This document shows, piece after piece, positions 3,533 through 28,457 of a DNA stretch of 44,211 nucleotides. This DNA comes from a virus (lineage: Duplodnaviria > Heunggongvirae > Uroviricota > Caudoviricetes): positions 1 to 44,211 of IMG/VR virus record IMGVR_UViG_2917413769_000009; one strand, written 5' to 3'. The stretch's first letter is position 1. Every line of letters starts with the position of its first letter. A program made the position numbers and the translations under genes. Below the pieces are notes generated by a model. The model was not told the origin of the DNA and made no database searches. It worked only from the letters and a program-made list of their open reading frames with translations.

Positions 3533-3814
3533 TCACATCCAGCCACGAAGTTGATGCTCAACAGCAACCGCGTATTCATCGAATAATGACGATATTTGCG
3601 AATCATTAATGATGCGCACGTTTACAAAATATCCGTCTTCCTTAACACATACCGGTTCGCCATCTTCAGTCAGTTCTCCGGTTTCTTTGTACACGTTACC
3701 TATCACGTCAATAAGAATATCATCCTGCATCGTCTCGTCGTCATAATAGCCAGTGCTATCCATAAAGGCCGAAAAGTCGGCCCTGTCTGCAAATTTGAGT
3801 GTTAAATCTTTCAT
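3533..3814 (-). CDS. hypothetical acidic protein (93 aa), translationally coupled to stf; possible fibre assembly factor
   Basis: ATG at 3812-3814 overlaps the stf stop (ATGA overlap). Acidic composition, no recognised motif. Confidence 0.5.
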   Translation of the reverse strand: MKDLTLKFADRADFSAFMDSTGYYDDETMQDDILIDVIGNVYKETGELTEDGEPVCVKEDGYFVNVRIINDSQISSLFDEYAVAVEHQLRGWM

Positions 3815-6213
3815 TTAATACTCTCCCCCATTTGTGCCTCAGTTAATTCTTTATGCCAAATGCGTAAATTTTTCACATGACCGAACAGGTGTCTGTTGCC
3901 ACTGGATGATTGTCCACCGATATTAATATTACCGGCAGTATAACGTTGCAATGTATGCAGAGACGGGGAGCTGCTACCTAAAATTCCATCAACAACAACC
4001 TGCAACTGTTTATCTTCTGTAAACTTAAAGCCAGTAACAAATTTCCTTTTCTCTCTATTCCCATATGCTTTATATTCTGTTTTTGTTCCTTTGCCATTGG
4101 TGATAATTAGCCTTTTACCACGAGTGGTAAAACCAAAATACATATAACTTTCATCAGAAACTTCAGTCGTCGCCCCTGTAATTGAGATATTAAGCAAACG
4201 CGCAGAGCCTTCTAAATTAGGCATTTCAGAATCCCAATTAACATTAACTTCCATGAGAACACTAATTGGTGGAGTTGCCCAGTTGAAAGGTATAGGTATG
4301 ATTACCTGGTCACTTGCTCTCGTGGCACCGACCTCTGTTGTGATGATAAAAGATGAGGCGTTTAGTCCCTTTTCGAATTGAGGGGTTGTTAACATTAATT
4401 TATCGCCAGACTTGATTGATCGTTGATGTGCTCCAAACTCAAAACGCCCATACATATTTTTGGCTTCTGGTGATTTGTAGGTAAACTCAACACGAATCCA
4501 TCCATTAGACTCTCTGAATATGTTATAAGTTGCCGCCTCACCTCCAGAATAACTCAACATATCGCCAGTCTCGCAATCAATATATGCGCCAGCGGTCAGT
4601 GTGTTACTTGAGCCATCGTCGTTAACATATGATATTCTTGGACGCAACGTGATAATACCATCCCCACTTACTTTTTTAACTCTGCAGGATAAAGTAACTG
4701 ATTCATTTGCCGAAACTGAAATAACCCTGGTATATCCAGTAGAAATTAATGTCGCCCTTTCAGTTGTGGATGTTTCTTTAACGCCAAACAAACCATAACT
4801 GAAACCATACTCATCAACTCCCGTGGTAATAGTTAAGTTAGCAGTGTCATAGTTCCACGATGCTGGTGTATTCGTATAAGAAAAAGTATTCGTTCTCTGA
4901 CCTTCAATGAGCAGACCATCTTTTTCAAAACGTGGTTCATTTATCACTGATTCAGCAAAACACCCAGACTTATCTATATACGTTGCAGTTGACGCCCTGG
5001 TAAATGAAACAACCTTTTCAGACGGCAATGTAATAACATCGTCACCAACTGTGATGCTCTTATACCCAGGAGCAAACCCGGTAATCATATCCAGTGAATC
5101 GTTAAACGGTATCCACACATCAGGCAGCGGCTGTAAGACATATTTATACGGCTCTGCTGCCTGGCTTGCATACTCTCTGGCTGCGTCTTCACTTTCTTTA
5201 GCTGCCGTCTGGCTTGCAGCGGATGCTTTCGCCGAGTTCGCCGCTGCAGTCTCGCTTGTCTTTGCATTGGTTTCACTGGTTTTTGCTGCTTTTTGGCTGT
5301 TGGCTGATGCAGTGGCAGAAGCAGCCGCCGCGCTTGCAGAACCAGCTGCGGCACTCTCGCTTTGGGCTGCTGCATCCTGACTGTTTTTCGCCGCAGTTTC
5401 GCTGGCTTTGGCATTTGTTTCGCTGGTCTTCGCTGCCGCCTGGCTGGACTTTGCGTTTGTTTCGCTCGTTTTCGCGGCTTTCTGGCTGTTAGCCGCAGCT
5501 GTTGCTGATCCAGCTGCTGAAGTCGCCGAACCAGCTGCAGCATTCTCGCTTTCGGCTGCTGCATCCTGACTGCTTTTCGCCGCAGTTTCACTGGCTTTGG
5601 CATTTGTTTCGCTGGTCTTCGCTGCCGTCTGGCTGGACTTTGCGTTGGTTTCGCTCGTCTTTGCGGCTGTCTCGCTGTTTTTCGCGTTGGTTTCTGATTT
5701 TTTGGCTGCTGTCGCGGAGTTTGCCGATGCAGTCTGTGAGGTCGCTGCCGCCTGTGCGCTGTTAGCTGCATTCGTTTCTGAGGTTTTCGCCGCATTTTTC
5801 GATGATGCCGCTGCAGTTTCGGATTTCTTTGCCGCCGCTGCGCTCTGAGAGGCGGCTTCGGCGTTGCGTGCCGCTTCTTCCACCATTTCCTCAAAACGAC
5901 GCAATGCCTCAGGCATGACATCATCTTCCGTCATGGCACCGAGAAAATCATTCAGCGTACCTGGTCTGGAACCTTCATAGACGGTAATGATCCCGGCATG
6001 TGAAGGCGGAAAACCTTCAACCAGCAGGGTGACGCTGTACTGGCCATACTCAACATCCATGCTGTAACGCCCGGCTTCATCCGGATTTTCAGAGGCTACC
6101 GTGTTCACCAGTACCGTGGTGCTGTTACGCTTTGCCTTCAGTTGAATAGTGCAGTTCTGTATTGGTTTTCCCGCACCATCTTTCAGCACACCTGAGATTT
6201 TTACTGCTGCCAT
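3811..6213 (-). CDS. stf: side tail fibre protein (lambda Stf-like N-terminus, Ala/Ser/Thr-rich repeat shaft, LamG/ConA-like C-terminal domain)
   Basis: N-terminus MAAVKISGVLKDGAGKPIQNCTIQLKA...YSMDVEYGQYSV matches lambda Stf as recalled; start set at the ATG at 6213 (the ORF track starts at a GTG two codons upstream). C-terminus ...HLFGHVKNLRIWHKELTEAQM resembles the end of LamG-type jelly-roll domains. Confidence 0.85.
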   Translation of the reverse strand: MAAVKISGVLKDGAGKPIQNCTIQLKAKRNSTTVLVNTVASENPDEAGRYSMDVEYGQYSVTLLVEGFPPSHAGIITVYEGSRPGTLNDFLGAMTEDDVMPEALRRFEEMVEEAARNAEAASQSAAAAKKSETAAASSKNAAKTSETNAANSAQAAATSQTASANSATAAKKSETNAKNSETAAKTSETNAKSSQTAAKTSETNAKASETAAKSSQDAAAESENAAAGSATSAAGSATAAANSQKAAKTSETNAKSSQAAAKTSETNAKASETAAKNSQDAAAQSESAAAGSASAAAASATASANSQKAAKTSETNAKTSETAAANSAKASAASQTAAKESEDAAREYASQAAEPYKYVLQPLPDVWIPFNDSLDMITGFAPGYKSITVGDDVITLPSEKVVSFTRASTATYIDKSGCFAESVINEPRFEKDGLLIEGQRTNTFSYTNTPASWNYDTANLTITTGVDEYGFSYGLFGVKETSTTERATLISTGYTRVISVSANESVTLSCRVKKVSGDGIITLRPRISYVNDDGSSNTLTAGAYIDCETGDMLSYSGGEAATYNIFRESNGWIRVEFTYKSPEAKNMYGRFEFGAHQRSIKSGDKLMLTTPQFEKGLNASSFIITTEVGATRASDQVIIPIPFNWATPPISVLMEVNVNWDSEMPNLEGSARLLNISITGATTEVSDESYMYFGFTTRGKRLIITNGKGTKTEYKAYGNREKRKFVTGFKFTEDKQLQVVVDGILGSSSPSLHTLQRYTAGNINIGGQSSSGNRHLFGHVKNLRIWHKELTEAQMGESIK
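5200..5880. repeat. tandem imperfect coding repeats within the stf shaft
   Basis: Two near-identical blocks at about 5365-5480 and 5560-5680, giving the duplicated protein blocks AAKTSETNAKSSQ...AAKTSETNAKASETAAK(S/N)SQDAAA(E/Q)SE(N/S)AAAGSA. They generate long spurious ORFs on both strands. Confidence 0.7.
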
Positions 6214-12812: not shown

Positions 12813-15800
12813 TCAGGCACTGCATAATCCTCCGTCCCGACGTGATGACTGCATAATTGACACAACCCTGCTGTCGATCAGATCCACCAGCCCCCTGGCT
12901 GACTGCGTATCTATCTCGCCATTGCTCCCTTTATTCTGAATACTGATGTGATACACGGGAGAATAAACAAATCCCCCGCCACCATTCACATTGCCAATGG
13001 CTCTGACTCCAAGAGAGCCGTCCGCTGCCCGGGTCAGTGGCATGATAGCTTCAGGCCCGGCCTCGCCCATCAGCCCGGCACCTTTCGCAAAAGCAAAATA
13101 CGTCGGGGTATCCACAATGGTGTTACTGTAAGCACTCAAATTTGCCGATGTATAAACACCACCTTTTGCGTTTGCCACTGCACCGGAAAGCCAGTCGCCG
13201 ACTGTACCAAGCCATCCTCCGGCACCGGACATGCTTTTGGAAAGTGACTTCAGCCCGTTAACGATGGCAGCGTTCATCAGAATTTTTGAAACTTCCTGGA
13301 GAATTGAACTCCCCCAGTTTCGCCAGTCCACAACATTTCCGGCCAGTGCATCGGAAATATTTGATACCAGCCCGTCCATAGTGGAAACGACAGCATCTGC
13401 CGCCTGCGAAGCATAATCGGTGGCACTGTCTGCCCAGTTCGTCAGTCCCTCCTGGAGGCCGGCATTCCAGTCACTGCGTAAAGCATCAGCCTTTGCATAA
13501 TAATCCTGCTGATCGCTGAGACGCTCTTCCAGATATTTTTCATTCAGCGATTTTTCCTGTTTCCACAGGGCTTCTTCAATTTCTCCGGCCTGATACTGTC
13601 TCAGTAGCTCGTTATTTTTCTGCTCAAACGCCTGCCGGATACTCCACATTTCCTGGAGTCGTTCACGCATCCGTGAGCCTTCACCATATCCCAGCAACTG
13701 CGCGTCGTCAGATGCCCGGGCACTGGCATTACTGTCCGCCAGACTGCTTTCATACGCGGCAAGCTGCTCACGAATCTTTTTCTGGTCGATGAGTGCCGCA
13801 TTCTGTAAAAGCGTTTTTTTTCTGCGCTTCTGACAGGGTTGATAATTCGCCCTGACTGACCTGATATTTCATCTTAGCCAGTTCAGTATTCTGCCCTGCC
13901 AGTGCTATCTGTTCTTTTTGCTGTTTAATCAGCCGTTTATAAATATCTTCTGTTTTTTCCGCTTCGGTCTTTTTATGCGTTTTGGGTTTATTTGCCTGGT
14001 TATTTCGCCAGGCATCCAGTGAGTTATTGATATAATTCTGTCTGGCTGTCTGATACGCCTCTCCCACAAAGCCGAGATCATCCGCAGCATAGCCCAGTCG
14101 GGCACGCTCACGCGCTTCCCCCTTAAGGCGGGACAGAGCCAGTTCGCGCTTGCTGTTATTCAGTGCGGTCTGCTGTTTATCATCCAGGGTTGCCTGTGGT
14201 AGCCGTAACGGTACATTCACCAGCCCCTGTCGCTGCTGAAGTAATTCATTACCAAGCCCAAGAAGGCGATTAAACTCGGTATGCTGCCCATTCATGATCA
14301 ACAGGGACTGATACGCTTTGTTTTGTTCCGCCGCCTGTTGACGGATCAACGCCACCCGTCGCTCCTCCAGCCCGGCAAGCACATCCTGAATAGATTGCGC
14401 TTTGCCCTGCATTTGAGTGAGACGGGATTGTTCAACTGCCAGTTGATTTGTTGCTTCGGCAAGCCCTTTAAGGATGATTTCAGCACCCGAACCACTCTGC
14501 GAACTTTCATCAAGCCAACGTTGATAATCAGCAATTTGATTTTTCAGTCCGCGAATTTTTCCTTCCTGTTCGCTAATCAGGCGATTTTGTTCCTCCAGTG
14601 CCTGCCGCGTCTTTTCCTCATTATCTGACGCTTCAGGAAGCGACATTGCCGACGTTTTCTGGCGAATTTCGTCGATTGTTGCGGCATACTGACGTGCAGA
14701 TTCTCTGGCCTGCTCCTGATTCTGATACATCGTGTACCAGGCCGCAGCCCCCAGCATGACAAGCCCCGGCACACCACCAACCAGCCCCAGTGCCCCTCTT
14801 AACAGACGACTCCCCACTGACGTGACAGTATTCAGCGTTGTCTGTGCTGCTGTTCTGGCCGCAATATTACGGGTAAGTGACGCCTGAGCAGCTGTCAGCT
14901 TCGCTTCTGCGGCTGCCTGCCTTTCAGTACCACGGGTAGCCGCAACCGCCTGTTGCGCACGATAAACCGCCGCACGCGCCCTGGCTGTTGCTATCTGTGT
15001 CCCCCGAAGTTGCGCTTCCGCAAGAGCCACTTCGTTTCTGGCTGCAGTAATTAATCCGGCAGTTGCAGATCCAGCAGAAGACGCCATATTGCCAAAATAT
15101 CGGGCTACCCCGACGGCAACCAGAGCACCGGCAGCGGTTGCCACAGTGTCAATATTGCCTGCAATACCATTCAGCACACCGGAGAGCGTCTTCGTCACTC
15201 CGCTTGCCTCGTTCGCACCACCAACCCAGGCCATAAAGGCGTTTTCAACTTTGGTTGCAGAGGATGAAACCGTATCAGGCATTGCCGCATATTCATCACG
15301 TAATGCCCCAAGCTGACTAACCAGTGCAGGAACAACCTTATCGGCGGTCAACTTTCCGTTATCCGCCATGGCCTTCAGATCCTTACGGGCAACCCCCATT
15401 CCCGCAGCCAGCGCACGAATAACACGATCGCCGTTCTCATTCACCGAGTTAAACTCTTCACCGCGTAGCACTCCCTGCGCCAGTGCCTGACTGAACTGCG
15501 TGATCACCGAACTGGCTTCTGCTGTACTGGCACCGGATAATTTCAGGCCCGTGGAGATCGCCTCGGTGACTTTCAGTACCTCCTCAGAACTGTAACCATA
15601 CTCCCGCATGGAAGCTGCAGAACGTGCAAAAAGGCTGGCGTTATCAGAAAACGCCGTCCCCGTTCTCTGGCTGATCGCCATTAATTCACGCTGTGATGCC
15701 TGAAAATCATCACTGGACTGTGAGGCCTGCTTCAGACGGGCATTTACTGAATTCCACTCATCGGCGAGAGAAATAAGATGACCGGTAGCAAAAGCCCCGG

Positions 15801-16032
15801 CAAATGCCCCCGCCATATTCAGTGCCGAAGATTTAGCTGTATTTATTTGATCCGTCACTTCTGCCAGTGCACGCCGCATTTCACGGGATGCAGCAGCGGA
15901 CTGCCGGCCTCCGTTCTGCATGGTACGGTAGTAATCCTGCCCCATACGCGAAGCCCGGGAGATCTCTGACTGGAATGACCGGGAATTTGCCGAGATTTTA
16001 ATAATCAGTTCACGTAATGTCGCCACACTCAT
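12813..16032 (-). CDS. H: tail tape measure protein; reading frame interrupted at the A8 run (plus-strand T8 at 13814-13821)
   Basis: A 754-aa ORF (13768-16032) and a 294-aa ORF (12813-13697) are two frames of one gene. The C-terminal part (...AYSNTIVDTPTYFAFAKGAGLMGEAGPEAIMPL...) is lambda H C-terminus-like; removing one A from the run fuses the frames (...SEAQKKTLLQNAALID...). Confidence 0.85.
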
Positions 16033-22497: not shown

Positions 22498-24230
22498 TTA
22501 AAGCGAGCGGATCCCGTAGGACTCAATGTGGTCAGACAGCGTGTCTTCTTTCTCGTACAGCATGGCTCTGCCAACCGCCATAATCAGCGCAACTGCACCA
22601 TCGATTTTGTTTTCCGCCTGCTCTTTGACGGGCTTCACCACATCATCGTTACCCGGAATGGTTTTTCCGACCACGTTGCCGATACACCAGGTCATGATGG
22701 GATTGCCATCATGATGAAAGCGCCCCGATTCAATTGCCGCTTCCAGCTCTTTCATCGGGTCGGACATGTTGGTGTAGTTCTGAATGATGGTGACGGGGTT
22801 CAGGTCTTCATCAGCAAGGTCATGTGACAGCCCGGTCGCCCGAAGGGGTCGATGGGTGACTCGCTGACCGGGCTGATTTTGTTCGCCGCTTTGGCCTCTT
22901 CGAGGATGTAGCGATAATCCACCTCTGCACCATCGGTAACGGTCAGAACGCCCATTTCCACCCATTTCTGAAAGCGTTCGGCTGTCCGGCGATCTTCATT
23001 TTTCTCGACGCTATACACCGTGTCATACGGTACCCAGAAACGCGGGGCCACACTGTAGTAATGCGTTTTACCGTCAATCTCGCGGGTATAAAGTCGCGCC
23101 ATGCTGTTCATATCCAGCTTACGCGCCAGGTCAAAGGCCAGAATGCACGGCTGCCCCTCGAATTGCTCAAGAGTCAGTGATTTATCCTCGCAGCTCTGCC
23201 AGCTCACCAGGTTGAAATACGCCGAACGCGCCGACACCCAGATATTGAGGTGTTTTGTTTTAAAGACGTTTGCCAGACGGGCGTTATTTTTCGCACGCTG
23301 TTGCTGACTTAACAAAAACTCACGGTAAACCGACACCCCGATATTCGGGTTGGCTTTTTCCAGCACCTGTGGGTCGGTCCAGTCGTCACCTTCGTCAACG
23401 GTATAGATGATCCCGAACAGTTCATCGTTGGGTACCGAACCGTTGAGCATCTCGATAACTTCCCGCCGTTTGTCGTAGCACGGCCCCTCAATGTTGTACC
23501 CGGCGGTAGTGATAGCCCACATCAGTGGCTGACGTCGCGCCCCCATCCCGGTAATCATCGTGGTGTAAAGCGCATCTGTGGCGTGCTCGTGATATTCATC
23601 CACCACCGCACAGTGGGGTGATGAACCATCACCGGGGTTACCGATCAGCGGTTCAAACCGCGCCCCATCCTCCGGACGGTTCATGTTTGAGGCGTTAACC
23701 TCAATCCCGAACGCTTCCGTCAGCATTGGTGTGCGTTTACACATCAGTCGCGCCGGGCGAAAAACTTCCCACGCCTGTTTCTCTGTCGTGGCACCGGAAT
23801 ACACTTCCGCGCCAAACTCGTTATCACAGGCAAAACAATACAGGGCAACACCGGCAGAGATTGCCGATTTGCCGTTTTTACGGGGAATTTCGGTATACAC
23901 CTCCCGGAAGCGGCGCAACCGGGTGCCTTTATTGACCCAGCCAAACGCACAGCAGATCACAAATAGCTGCCACGGCTCCAGCGTGATGGGCATCCGTTTA
24001 AATGCCCACTCACCCTTGGTGTGCGGCAACAGCTGAATAAATTTGGCGGCCCGTTCAGCCAGGTCCTTGTCGAAGCGGTAACGAAACGACTTACTTTTTT
24101 CCGCCATCAGGTCATCAAGATGGCGCTGGCAGGCCTGAATCACAAACTGGCAGGCAACAATCTTTCCGCGCACGACATCCCGGGCATACTGATTTGCAGC
24201 ATTTACGTTGGGGTAAGATTTCCGGCTCAT
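22498..24230 (-). CDS. terminase large subunit; reading frame interrupted near the G4 run at 22845-22848
   Basis: N-terminal ATPase part is the 476-aa ORF 22800-24230, the C-terminal nuclease part continues in another frame to 22498 (...[22 protein letters not shown]...). Adding one G/C at the run gives a continuous ...[14 protein letters not shown]... Confidence 0.85.
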
Positions 24231-24730
24231 GATTCGATAATTTTCAGAAACGGGTTAGTGGCTTTCTTCTGCCCCGCCAGGCCAATCAGACGCTGGCGGC
24301 TGCTGGGGTCGAGTCCGAGCATTGCCCCCGTACTGCTCATCTCGGACTCCTGTTCTTTTTTGGCGGTCAGCTCCGGATTTTTGACCATGCCGCCCATTGC
24401 ACCGGTGATGGTGTTGCCCTGTCTGGCAATATTTTTCACAGCACGTCGCCAGAACTCATAGGCTACGCACCACCGCTCAAGCACCGCAAGGTCAGTCACG
24501 CACAGCAGGCCCTGACCGCAGAGTTCTTTGGTTGTCAGTTGCCACATGATCGTGGCGAGAGGGAGCTCTTCTTCAGCGAACCACTCCGGTGGCTCAACAC
24601 CTTTGATGGGCGTAAAAACGGGTTCATCTTTGTTCAGGGCTCGCTTGCCGGGGTTTCCGGCCAGCGCCTTGCGCGCCGTTGGCTTGGGGCGACGCCCGGA
24701 ACGCCCCGCCGTTCCAGCCATATGCGGCAC
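24227..24730 (-). CDS. terminase small subunit (P27-like family)
   Basis: 167-aa ORF ATGA-coupled to the large subunit; basic N-terminus [30 protein letters not shown]... Confidence 0.85.
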
Positions 24731-24764: not shown

Positions 24765-24825
24765 AAACGATGGGGCGGGCAGTCCGGAAGACGTCAGGTC
24801 ACAGGGATTTGACCCGCCCCTCCCC
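24765..24825. other. GC-rich inverted repeat in the HNH-terS intergenic region; candidate cos/packaging signal or terminator
   Basis: GGGGCGGG (24772-24779) and CCCGCCCC (24813-24820) flank a 33-bp spacer; the minus-strand transcript would have a U-run after the hairpin. HK97-type phages place cos upstream of terS. Confidence 0.3.
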
Positions 24826-24846
24826 TCAGACAGTTGAGAATTATTA

Positions 24847-25197
24847 TCAATTAAGCCGTTCACGGGCCGTCTTCGCCTTATGACACGGCCAGCACAGGCT
24901 CTGCAGATTACTGTCTGAATCTGTGCCGCCATGCGCTTTAGGGATGATGTGGTCAACGGTTTTCGCCTCGCGCACCACACCAGCACGCAGGCACAACTGG
25001 CACAGGCCTTTGTCACGCTTCAGCACACGCGCGCGGATACCGTCCCACTTCGAACCATAACCGCGCTGATGACGGGATTGTCCTGGCTTGTATTGCTTCC
25101 AGCCTTCGCTTTTGTGGCTTTCGCAATAGCCGGAAGGAGCAGTGGTGGTATGGCGGCAGCCGCGAACACGGCAGGCTCTGGGGATTAAGGCAGGCAT
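24847..25197 (-). CDS. HNH endonuclease
   Basis: 116 aa with Cys-rich N-terminus and HNH motif ...VDHIIPKAHGGTDSDSNLQSLCWPCHKAKT...; HNH next to terminase is typical of HK97-like packaging modules. Confidence 0.88.
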   Translation of the reverse strand: MPALIPRACRVRGCRHTTTAPSGYCESHKSEGWKQYKPGQSRHQRGYGSKWDGIRARVLKRDKGLCQLCLRAGVVREAKTVDHIIPKAHGGTDSDSNLQSLCWPCHKAKTARERLN

Positions 25198-25470
25198 GAT
25201 AAATCGACTCGTTTAACTCTTCTGTGTCTACAACGCAAATCACAAACTCCGCATTCTTCCCTCCATTAAAACTGAATATTGAAGAGGGATTATGAAAAAA
25301 GATCATTTAATCAATCTGATAATCAATATCTTACTTAAGATGATAATAAAGCTTTGCGCAAATTGGATATTGGAACACTTCCACATATGGTTGAACCATC
25401 TGCTGTCTTACATGAGCTGACACTGTTCATCCGCACACGAGTGGTGTGGTAGGCATATTGATTCGAGCGT

Positions 25471-25917
25471 TTATGAATGCAGCCCGGGTATTGTGAGCTG
25501 CAGCTGGGTAGCCAGGCTACTAATTTCGGCCATCAGAACTGGCTTGGTGTAACGCCATGCAGCCAGGCCCTGCCCGCAGAAGCTCGCCATATCTTTCTTC
25601 TGATCAAACTCGTGACACTTCATATTGAGCTGTGCACTTAAGCTGCTGCGATGCTGAAGCTCTCCGGTGAAGTAGTCATCGAGGACTTTATAGGCTGCAT
25701 ATTTAAACCCAGGGTTTAGCCATGCCGCGTAATCATAAGCAACAAACTTTCCTCCATATGTTCCACCGTGTACACCGCGCTCCGTAAAAACCACAGATTC
25801 GTGGTTTTTCTCCAGCTCGGCTAAGAACTCTTTGGTCTGCTTGTTTCGCAGGTAGTGGTACGGAGATTCAGATTCACTTTTACCACTGGCTTTCCACATG
25901 TCAGTGAGGCAGATCAT
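25471..25917 (-). CDS. KilA-N domain protein
   Basis: 148 aa; ICLTDMWKASGK...YLRNKQTKEFLAEL...ERGVHGGTYGGKFVAYDYAAWLNPGFKYAAYKVL fits the KilA-N pattern (INATQMCKAAGK...WLRLKSTKEF...GTWVHPDLAIEFARWLSPEF) as I recall it. Confidence 0.6.
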   Translation of the reverse strand: MICLTDMWKASGKSESESPYHYLRNKQTKEFLAELEKNHESVVFTERGVHGGTYGGKFVAYDYAAWLNPGFKYAAYKVLDDYFTGELQHRSSLSAQLNMKCHEFDQKKDMASFCGQGLAAWRYTKPVLMAEISSLATQLQLTIPGLHS

Positions 25918-26143
25918 TCCTGATTCATCAACACGGATCGAATATTAAAAAGCGTGATTGCTTTCATAGCGTTTTTACCTTTTAGAAAATTGAGCCTGTC
26001 CCACAGAAAAGCCGCCCCGAGATGGTCGCCACCATATACGGCAGTTCTCAGGCTCAACTTTCTGAAAGGCTCGGGTGATAATATGCGCGTGGGAGGCGCG
26101 GTGAATTTCAGATGTCAAAAAGCCAGCGATTAATCTGGCTCTG

Positions 26144-26581
26144 TTAATTCAAACACTGCGTTCTGATGTACTCCTGCAAGTAGTTAACCTGCGCGGTTAT
26201 CCTGTCGATTCCACTTCGGAGACGGTAATAATTGAGTTCAGCATCTGCTGTAAGTCTTGGGCTTTCTCCATCGCCCATGCCGCTGGCTCCGGTCGTTGAC
26301 TTTGCACAGGTGGCGGCGACTTGCAGGCGCTTACGACCAGCAGAAACATCAGCACGGAGACTTTCGATAGTCGCGTTAGCATCAGCAAGCTCCTTTGTGT
26401 ATCTGGCGTCGAGTTCTGCTACATCACGTTGACGCTTCTGCATGTCAGCGATGATGTACGTGGCTTTATCGCGCTGGTCTTTGTAGGCGATGGCGTTATC
26501 ACGGTAATGATTAACAGCCCATGACAGGCAGACGATGATGCAGATAACCAGAACAGAGATAATCGCGGTTACCCTGCTCAT
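26144..26581 (-). CDS. Rz: i-spanin Rz
   Basis: Start at [31 protein letters not shown]..., matching the lambda Rz N-terminus as recalled; coupled to the endolysin stop. Confidence 0.85.
26197..26388 (-). CDS. Rz1: o-spanin Rz1 (lipoprotein) embedded in the +1 frame of Rz
   Basis: 63-aa ORF inside Rz with lipobox LVVSAC and a proline-rich segment. Confidence 0.8.
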
Positions 26582-27075
26582 TGTTGCCCCCACAAACAGA
26601 CCTCACGCTCAATCTCACGACGAGTCATCAGGCCTTTCCATTGCTTACCGCCAGCGTATGTCCAGCGACGTAGCTGGTCACATGCGCCCTTGATATCGCC
26701 CTGGTTTATTTTGCGAAGAAGAGTAGATGTTCTGAAATTGCCTGCGCCCACGTTATAGACGAACGAGTAAAGAGCGCCGCGCGTTGTTTCCGGTATATCG
26801 ACTTTGATGTACGGGTTAATTTGTCTGGCGACAGTGGCAAGGTCTTTATTCAGGAGGGCTTTGCATTCTGCTTCGGTATACGTTTTACCGAGCATAATGT
26901 CTTTTCCGGTGTGCCCGTAACATACAGTCCATACACCAACGATATCTTTATATGGTATGTAGCTGACGCCTTCCAGACCATCGTTACCACTTGGGCCAGT
27001 GATTAACACAGATGCTATAGCAATAGCCCCGCCACCAATAGCCGCAGCAACGGCTTTTCGTAATGATGGAGGCAT
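26578..27075 (-). CDS. R: SAR endolysin (phage-21 R21-type lysozyme)
   Basis: 165 aa; N-terminal Gly/Ala-rich weakly hydrophobic signal-anchor-release segment [20 protein letters not shown] followed by a lysozyme-like domain. Confidence 0.9.
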
Positions 27076-27290
27076 TATTCACCTCTCGCAGCCTTTCTTC
27101 TGTCTTCTCTGATTTTGAAGTACAGATTTGTCAGATAGGTGAGAAAGCCCAACACAAGGCTTCCAAGCACTCCAATCGCAGCCCACTGTGATGGACTGAC
27201 CTGATCCAACCACTGCAAAAACCAGTATCCCGCACTACCAGCGGATGTTCCGTAGGCAATGCCAGTTGAGATTTTGTCCATTGATTTCAT
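27075..27290 (-). CDS. S: pinholin (phage-21 S21-type) with dual-start motif
   Basis: 71 aa, [71 protein letters not shown], which I recognise as the S21 holin/antiholin sequence. Confidence 0.9.
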
Positions 27291-27833: not shown

Positions 27834-28457
27834 CTAACGTGTGACCGCATTCAAAATGTTGTCTGCGATTGACTCTTCTTTGTGGCATTGCACCACCAGA
27901 GCGTCATACAGCGGCTTAACAGTGCGTGACCAGGTGGGTTGAGTAAGGTTTGGGATTAGCATCGTTACAGCGCGATATGCGGCGCTTGCTGGCATTCTTG
28001 AATAGCCGACACCTTTGCATCTTCCGCACTCTTTCTCAACAACTCTCCCCCACTGCTCTGTTTTGGCTATATCAACCGCACGGCCTGTACCGTGGCAATC
28101 TCTGCATCTTGCGCCCGGCGTCGCGGCACTACGGCAATAATCCGCATAAGCGAATGTTGCGAGCACTTGCAGTACCTTTGCCTTAGTATTTCCTTCAAGC
28201 TTTGCCACACCACGGTATTTCCCCGATACCTTGTGTGCAAATTGCATCAGATAGTTGATAGCCTTTTGTTTGTCGTTCTGGCTGAGTTCATGCTTACCGC
28301 AGAATGCAGCCATTCCGAATCCGGCTTGTGATTGCGCCATCCCCATAGCAGCCATCACATCAGTACCGGAAAGAGAGTCAGAAGCCGTAGCCCGTGGTGA
28401 GTCGCTCATCATCGGGCTTTTTGGCGAATGAAATTTAGCTACGCTTTCGAGTCTCAT
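27834..28457 (-). CDS. Q: late antiterminator Q (lambda type)
   Basis: 207 aa, [60 protein letters not shown]..., essentially lambda Q as recalled. Confidence 0.95.

Follow-up and report, generated by a model that had tools for sequence, protein, structure and literature searches.

A KilA-N reading frame behind the lysis cassette of a prophage, a probable remnant of an hkbK-type gene

HkbK and other KilA-N proteins

The closest described relative of the gene treated here is hkbK of phage HK620. Its product (NP_112071.1) and the orthologues that RefSeq lists as 'KilA-N domain-containing protein' consist of two domains, and their genes follow Rz on the late strand, each preceded by a leader. 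These features recur in the sequence that we analysed, a stretch of 44,211 bp from a virus record (IMGVR_UViG_2917413769_000009) which is referred to as the window. DNA identity between HK620 and the window is about 89% over the gene and its 157-nt leader. HkbK is intact with 165 residues and is followed by hkbL with an ATGA overlap, while the gene in the window is frameshifted at codon 9 and is followed by an AT-rich spacer.

P1 KilA, the host-killing protein that founded the KilA-N family, is homologous in its N-terminal domain, with 29% identity over residues 11-127 (E 2e-9). It is longer (about 266 residues) and carries a C-terminal ANT/KilA-C domain. The protein from the window differs from it by a C-terminus of 54 residues that is of the ORF11CD3 type, and its gene belongs to a late operon, whereas kilA of P1 is located beside the lytic replicon. 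The same domain combination, KilA-N followed by ORF11CD3, is found in Orf11 of Pseudomonas phage D3, the protein of 166 residues from which the ORF11CD3 domain has its name. The D3 gene is also co-directional with a late operon, that for head and tail, but the protein is only about 26% identical and, instead of following Rz, the gene is located between head-tail adaptor and tail genes. At the D3 locus (L005), the covariance model R1 for the enterobacterial leader RNA (see below) gave no match.

The original prediction had stated that KilA-N domains occur in prophage-encoded abortive-infection proteins, which the literature bears out for BstA from prophages of Salmonella, Klebsiella and E. coli, where remote homology places a KilA-N(-like) domain at residues 32-147 (PMC8585504). 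However, BstA is a much longer two-domain protein with a conserved C-terminal domain of its own (PMC8585504), and this description sets it apart from the reading frame in the window, which codes for 148 residues (165 when intact) and ends in ORF11CD3. The fungal APSES domain of Mbp1 (PDB 1bm8) has a sequence identity of 12% and belongs to a eukaryotic transcription factor; it is uninformative on the target sequence or the role of the phage protein. Among PDB chains, the family profile found no relatives by sequence, and the protein is not represented by a model in NCBIfam.

The hkbK-type family itself is widespread. Of 5426 complete E. coli genomes searched by BLAST, 1059 carry the gene, and so do 146 phage records, including HK620, many Stx-converting phages and Salmonella phages. 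These genes are among the commonest uncharacterised late-operon accessory genes in phages of E. coli, Shigella and Salmonella, Stx phages included. In the relatives, the gene is annotated with 498 bp, coding for 165 aa, and starts with MKAITLFNTPIRVDESGMICL. It is found directly after Rz and before TerS in HK620, in Stx2a phages, in Salmonella phages, in E. coli prophages and in Erwinia phage phiEt88, the copy of which shows 51% identity. The position behind Rz is constant across three terminase types (P22, 933W, and HK97/P27 with HNH). Judged by gene order, members of the family are regularly part of late operons and share their orientation.

At 83 of 89 loci the KilA-N gene overlaps by ATGA with a following, translationally coupled gene, hkbL, which codes for 85-95 aa (85 aa in HK620, positions 3647-3904 of locus L002). 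The HkbL protein starts with MSDRVIECASRAGRDF, ends in a very basic tail (KAERKEERRRKRAEAKAK) and matches no Pfam family. HkbL looks like an obligate partner of the KilA-N gene. A literature search for hkbK returned nothing relevant, and for ORF11CD3 the relevant work was confined to papers on HE-PICI and the Bro network. The gene family is already catalogued (RefSeq WP_240782904.1, HK620 hkbK type).

Domain swapping at the junction between KilA-N and ORF11CD3 is evident from a protein alignment (A3). Three proteins (P0022-24) have near-identical ORF11CD3 domains (>90%) behind divergent KilA-N domains (about 40-50% identical), while three others (P0021, P0027 and P0029) have the same KilA-N domain with a different C-terminus. 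ORF11CD3 is also found behind a P22_AR_N domain in an O157 prophage. Phage proteins that behave in this way have been described as the 'Bro network' (PMC10111431), and proteins of the hkbK type, with an N-terminal KilA-N domain (APSES-like) and a C-terminal ORF11CD3 hairpin, belong to this domain-swapping network of DNA-binding proteins. In two further proteins (P0014 and P0015) a different N-terminal head is fused to the body of the gene.

The truncated gene and its surroundings

The late region of the window is encoded on the minus strand. It begins with the gene for the Q antiterminator (27834-28457), followed by a holin-sized ORF of 71 aa (27075-27290) and an endolysin-sized ORF of 165 aa (26578-27075), both of which are putative assignments from position and size alone. 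The lysis cassette ends with the gene for the Rz spanin (26144-26593; Pfam Phage_lysis, E 5.6e-36), and the ORF list has Rz1 embedded in it (26197-26388). The ORF of interest codes for 148 aa from ATG to stop (25471-25917, minus strand, according to the ORF list). Beyond it lie the HNH endonuclease gene of an HK97-type packaging module (24847-25197; Pfam HNH, E 8e-17) and the gene for a P27-family TerS (24227-24730; Pfam Terminase_4, E 2.4e-21), with TerL next. The location between the lysis and packaging modules, with Rz on one side and HNH on the other, is thus as originally predicted. That this slot frequently harbours accessory genes also holds: its content is variable in the relatives, where it includes genes for DUF6979, hkbL/M/N, DUF3950, HNH_3-AP2 endonucleases and P22_AR_N proteins.

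The KilA-N gene and the HNH gene are separated by an AT-rich spacer of 273 bp (25198-25470) with a GC content of 0.33-0.40, compared to 0.5-0.6 in the flanks. It occupies the place that is taken by hkbL and other small genes in most relatives. An hkbL homologue was not found anywhere in the window (tblastn), and hkbL is also missing from E. coli KS-NP019 and from one further locus (L011). The spacer is 98% identical in KS-NP019, while a 1-kb query that includes it was covered to at least 80% in only 6 E. coli genomes. On the plus strand, the spacer contains an ORF of 42 aa (25292-25420, MKKDHLINLIINILLKMIIKLCANWILEHFHIWLNHLLSYMS) without Pfam match.

The protein had been described as a stand-alone KilA-N-like protein of 148 aa, and an HMM search had been proposed, in which lack of a KilA-N hit would speak against the assignment. 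The search returned a clear match to Pfam KilA-N (PF04383, E 4.9e-13, 49.3 bits with a cut-off of 23.8), and the ORF belongs to a family with the APSES-like DNA-binding fold. It does not stand alone, because a second domain, ORF11CD3 (PF10549), covers residues 92-144 (nt 25486-25644) and is matched over its full length (profile positions 1-54 of 54, E 3.8e-13, 49.9 bits, gathering threshold 25 bits). Neither is 148 aa the proper length, since the ORF is a 5'-truncated version of a gene for 165 aa. The residual KilA-N domain (residues 1-84, nt 25666-25917) matches positions 17-106 of a profile of 107 positions, whereas the match starts at position 6 in intact orthologues. Besides these two domains, no other Pfam domain was found in the ORF at E values up to 1, and this includes the C-terminal ANT/KilA-C and P22_AR_C domains.

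The ATG used by the 165-aa orthologues is preserved in the window at position 25967, 50 nt upstream of the 148-aa ORF. The relatives have AATACACCGATC where the window has AATAT-TCGATC, which corresponds to a deletion of 1 bp and two adjacent substitutions. This lesion (about 25941-25943, minus strand; ACACC in the relatives, AT-TC in the window) is outside of a homopolymer and falls within codon 9; relative to the prophage of E. coli AVS0655, the deletion is set at 25943. What is left of the original 5' end (25914-25967, minus strand) consists of the eight native codons for MKAITLFN, nine out-of-frame codons and TGA. The original frame has been reduced to these 17 codons, and its TGA overlaps the ATG of the 148-aa ORF (ATGA, 25914-25917). 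The window copy is located directly downstream of Rz on the late strand and has the conserved leader, but the 165-aa frame that starts with MKAITLFN is absent. From this comparison, the 148-aa ORF represents the 3' part of an hkbK-type gene that has been broken, and it begins at an internal methionine.

When compared over 156 aa, the sequence and the intact protein from KS-NP019 (165 aa) share 98.7% identity. Because of this high identity to intact relatives the lesion must be recent, and selection cannot be judged. The exact 148-aa protein corresponds to RefSeq WP_240782904.1, a single entry in NCBI nr that is listed only from Escherichia sp. E1130 and for which a contig search gave no record, while the other full-length members among those listed in its 90% cluster have 165-169 aa. 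An exact 35-mer covering the context of the lesion had no match in 185,579 species-representative genomes. A programmed frameshift, or a natural arrangement of two ORFs, was considered and rejected since only one record has it.

The consequences for the protein were assessed on an AlphaFold2 model of a 165-aa orthologue (P0001), computed from an alignment of 18 sequences, with a mean pLDDT of 83. In the model, residues 4-6 and 9-11 form strands, as do residues 71-72 (a short one); there are helices at 21-28, 36-41, 43-55 and 74-84, and a long helical hairpin (86-130 and 132-155) that corresponds to ORF11CD3. Residues 1-17, which are lost to the frameshift, contain strands 1 and 2 of the small sheet in this model. 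A 148-aa product would retain all of the most conserved KilA-N residues (L21-W25, GGT at 68-70, AYxYA at 77-81) and the whole of ORF11CD3, and the model suggests that any such product is probably destabilised. Termination and reinitiation at the ATGA would yield the 148-aa product at best, which would probably be unstable. This overlap could nevertheless allow real expression of the 148-aa product, and residual or dominant-negative activity is conceivable.

The DNA of the window was also compared with a prophage of E. coli AVS0655 that looks intact and is 95-97% identical over the late region. Isolated and uncompensated indels of 1 bp were found in three conserved late genes, one of them being the KilA-N gene (deletion at 25943, minus strand, non-homopolymer). 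In the tape measure gene (minus strand), a T6 run has been extended to T7 at position 13821, so that the gene appears split into ORFs of 754 aa (13768-16032) and 294 aa (12813-13697), compared to 1070 aa in AVS0655. In the TerL gene (minus strand), a G4 run has been reduced to G3 at about position 22842 (run at 22839-22842), and the protein, of 577 aa in relatives, is represented by ORFs of 476 aa (22800-24230) and 155 aa (22498-22965). The lesions in TerL and tape measure suggest either a defective prophage or sequencing errors in homopolymers; the prophage is defective if both of these indels are real. Two further indels of 1 bp relative to AVS0655 are intergenic and are located in a run of C between HNH and TerS (24820) and between Q and the holin gene (27758).

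We consider the window copy to be, with a probability of roughly 0.78, a non-functional remnant of an hkbK-type gene in a decaying prophage. This reading is based on the loss of the start, of two strands of the DNA-binding fold and of the partner gene, and on the other lesions in the prophage. What speaks against it is that, of the three frameshifts, two occur in homopolymers (T6/T7 at 13821, G4/G3 at 22842), which is also typical of read errors. The frameshift might then be a sequencing or assembly artefact, in line with the restriction of the truncated allele to a single record, and the real genome would have an intact 165-aa gene that lacks hkbL, like that of E. coli KS-NP019, possibly within an intact prophage. 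We regard this as unlikely. The lesion in the KilA-N gene is not in a homopolymer and comes with two adjacent substitutions, which is unusual for a read error, and broken copies arise independently, as the gene is interrupted at codon 50 in 3 of 89 other loci. Homopolymer slippage is, in addition, the commonest real mutation in decaying prophages.

With the remnant thus being the preferred reading, the finding itself is a minor one, a damaged copy of a catalogued family, and the gene has no place in a list of defence candidates. It illustrates that ORF callers and PGAP call the ORF from the internal methionine as a normal 'KilA-N domain-containing protein', so that pseudogenisation is hidden.

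A functional accessory protein was also considered, either an antirepressor or a prophage-encoded factor for abortive infection or exclusion, which would be expressed from the prophage and target incoming phages or other repressors. It would fit the KilA-N(-like) domain of BstA (PMC8585504), the similarity to P1 KilA described above and the accessory gene content of the slot in relatives. There is also a weak match to a PADLOC candidate system (PDC-S22, E 4e-8, 30.5 bits). However, this sole match in PADLOC-DB 2.0 aligns residues 43-73 with positions 100-130 of a profile of 281 positions, about 30 residues of the KilA-N core, and is thus far from covering a defence model over its full length; PDC-S22 is itself unvalidated. 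The C-terminal domain is ORF11CD3 and neither the C-terminal domain of BstA nor ANT/KilA-C, and the gene has lost its 5' end and is not accompanied by hkbL, its usual partner. Moreover, the gene is common in plaque-forming phages, where it resides within late operons. A functional role of this kind for the window copy is very improbable, and the signals upstream of the gene, described in the next section, also speak against it.

A structured leader RNA

The gene travels together with about 157 nt of DNA that precede its ATG. Directly after the Rz stop codon, there is a hairpin followed by a U-run that resembles an intrinsic terminator (26116-26142, minus strand; AGAGCCAG..CUGGCUUU; -10.8 kcal/mol, z -2.7). 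Relatives have different GC-rich stems at this site, each followed by U5-6 (z -3.6 to -6.0). Next comes a small hairpin, GCGC-N7-GCGC (26085-26099, minus strand), the stem of which is kept with changed sequence in other copies (UUGCAU/GUGCAA, UGCGCUU/AAGCGUA, AUGCGU/ACGCAU). The third element is a long imperfect hairpin of about 95 nt (25977-26070, minus strand; predicted RNA, MFE -47.3 kcal/mol, z -5.7). At its base, GCCUUU (26065-26070) pairs with the Shine-Dalgarno sequence AAAGGU (25977-25982), 10 nt before the ancestral ATG. The leaders of the Stx type and of the phiEt88 type have only about 55-60% sequence identity to that of the window type but show the same architecture, each with its own Shine-Dalgarno sequence being paired.

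Within the subfamily that comprises the window and HK620, leader variation is almost entirely structure-preserving. A covariance model (R1) was built from this subfamily; it matches the window at 25962-26075 with 122 bits and detects the leader in front of the gene at each of 80 viral loci from IMG/VR. In an alignment of 25 distinct leaders, 96.5% of the cells are paired and 24 of the 31 pairs have changed on both sides, although the number of independent covariation events is overstated, as the alignment was fitted to the model and represents few lineages. None of 500 shuffles reached the observed values, and in controls where the partners were slid by 1-3 columns, pairing dropped to 38-52% with at most 8 pairs changed on both sides. 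Despite the model-fitted alignment, the comparative data indicate that the structure is well supported. When all leader types were simply aligned with MAFFT, RNAalifold recovered only the inner stem since the outer arms were misaligned; this was resolved by the alignment from the covariance model.

Several known RNAs were considered as the identity of the leader and were rejected. Rfam contained no relevant family (24800-26700 of the window at E up to 1; loci L002, L003 and L010 at E up to 0.1), and the families C4, isrK, AsxR and AgvB gave no match. Anti-sRNAs map to the moron site proximal to pR' (PMC4104026). The preprint on Pas sRNAs makes no mention of KilA, antirepressor, terminase or spanin genes (10.64898/2026.05.13.724894). 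An RNA at the junction between Rz and terminase is described in neither of the two.

A promoter-like sequence (TTCACC-16-TATTAT, 26105-26078) overlaps the small hairpin. Taken at face value, it would support expression of the gene from a promoter of its own, as in a 'moron', and hence the functional reading. The case for such a promoter is weak, because sites of this type are as frequent as expected from shuffled sequence, leaders of the Stx type and of the type found at locus L016 do not conserve the -35 hexamer, and the spacer coincides with the small hairpin that covaries. In addition, a terminator and a hairpin that occludes the Shine-Dalgarno sequence precede the gene. The orientation within the late operon, the terminator and the lack of a conserved promoter of its own argue against expression in the lysogen, which would be needed for prophage defence.

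For intact members of the family, we envisage that transcription starts at pR' and that RNA polymerase modified by Q reads through the terminator into the gene. The leader hairpin that buries the Shine-Dalgarno sequence, a structure derived from covariation, would then throttle translation. The protein would bind DNA via its APSES-like domain and would oligomerise or dock via the ORF11CD3 hairpin. Domain homology and gene position thus suggest that the intact protein is most likely a DNA-binding accessory regulator of the late lytic phase and probably not a defence protein that is expressed in the lysogen.

The leader is not restricted to hkbK-type genes. R1 detected at least 13 further copies, always on the strand of the late operon and ending at a start codon (among them L010 1737-1851, L004 2833-2940, L023 1518-1625, L008 5016-5111, L086 5492-5599 and L079 5627-5720). 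The genes behind them code for a P22_AR_N+ORF11CD3 protein, which is located between R and Rz in O157 prophages, for HNH_3+AP2 endonucleases, for another HNH endonuclease and for tail-tip-like proteins. It is conceivable, at somewhat less than even odds, that the leader represents an undescribed portable module for expression control, which travels with the selfish accessory cargo of lambdoid late operons and gates its translation. Gating might be achieved, for example, by RNase III processing or by ribosome-dependent unfolding. If the leader does control translation, this would explain how such cargo is tolerated in lambdoid late operons, and the leader would serve as a handle for finding more of it. 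A covarying leader RNA that is common to hkbK-type genes, homing endonucleases and other inserts deserves a separate look.

In Escherichia phage Dewey, a gene for an HNH_3+AP2 endonuclease with its own leader (L004 2833-3506) is located between Rz and the KilA-N gene, and its 3' end runs into the last 35 nt or so of the KilA-N leader. This looks like a homing-type insertion into the leader, by which the 5' arm that pairs with the Shine-Dalgarno sequence of the KilA-N gene has been removed.
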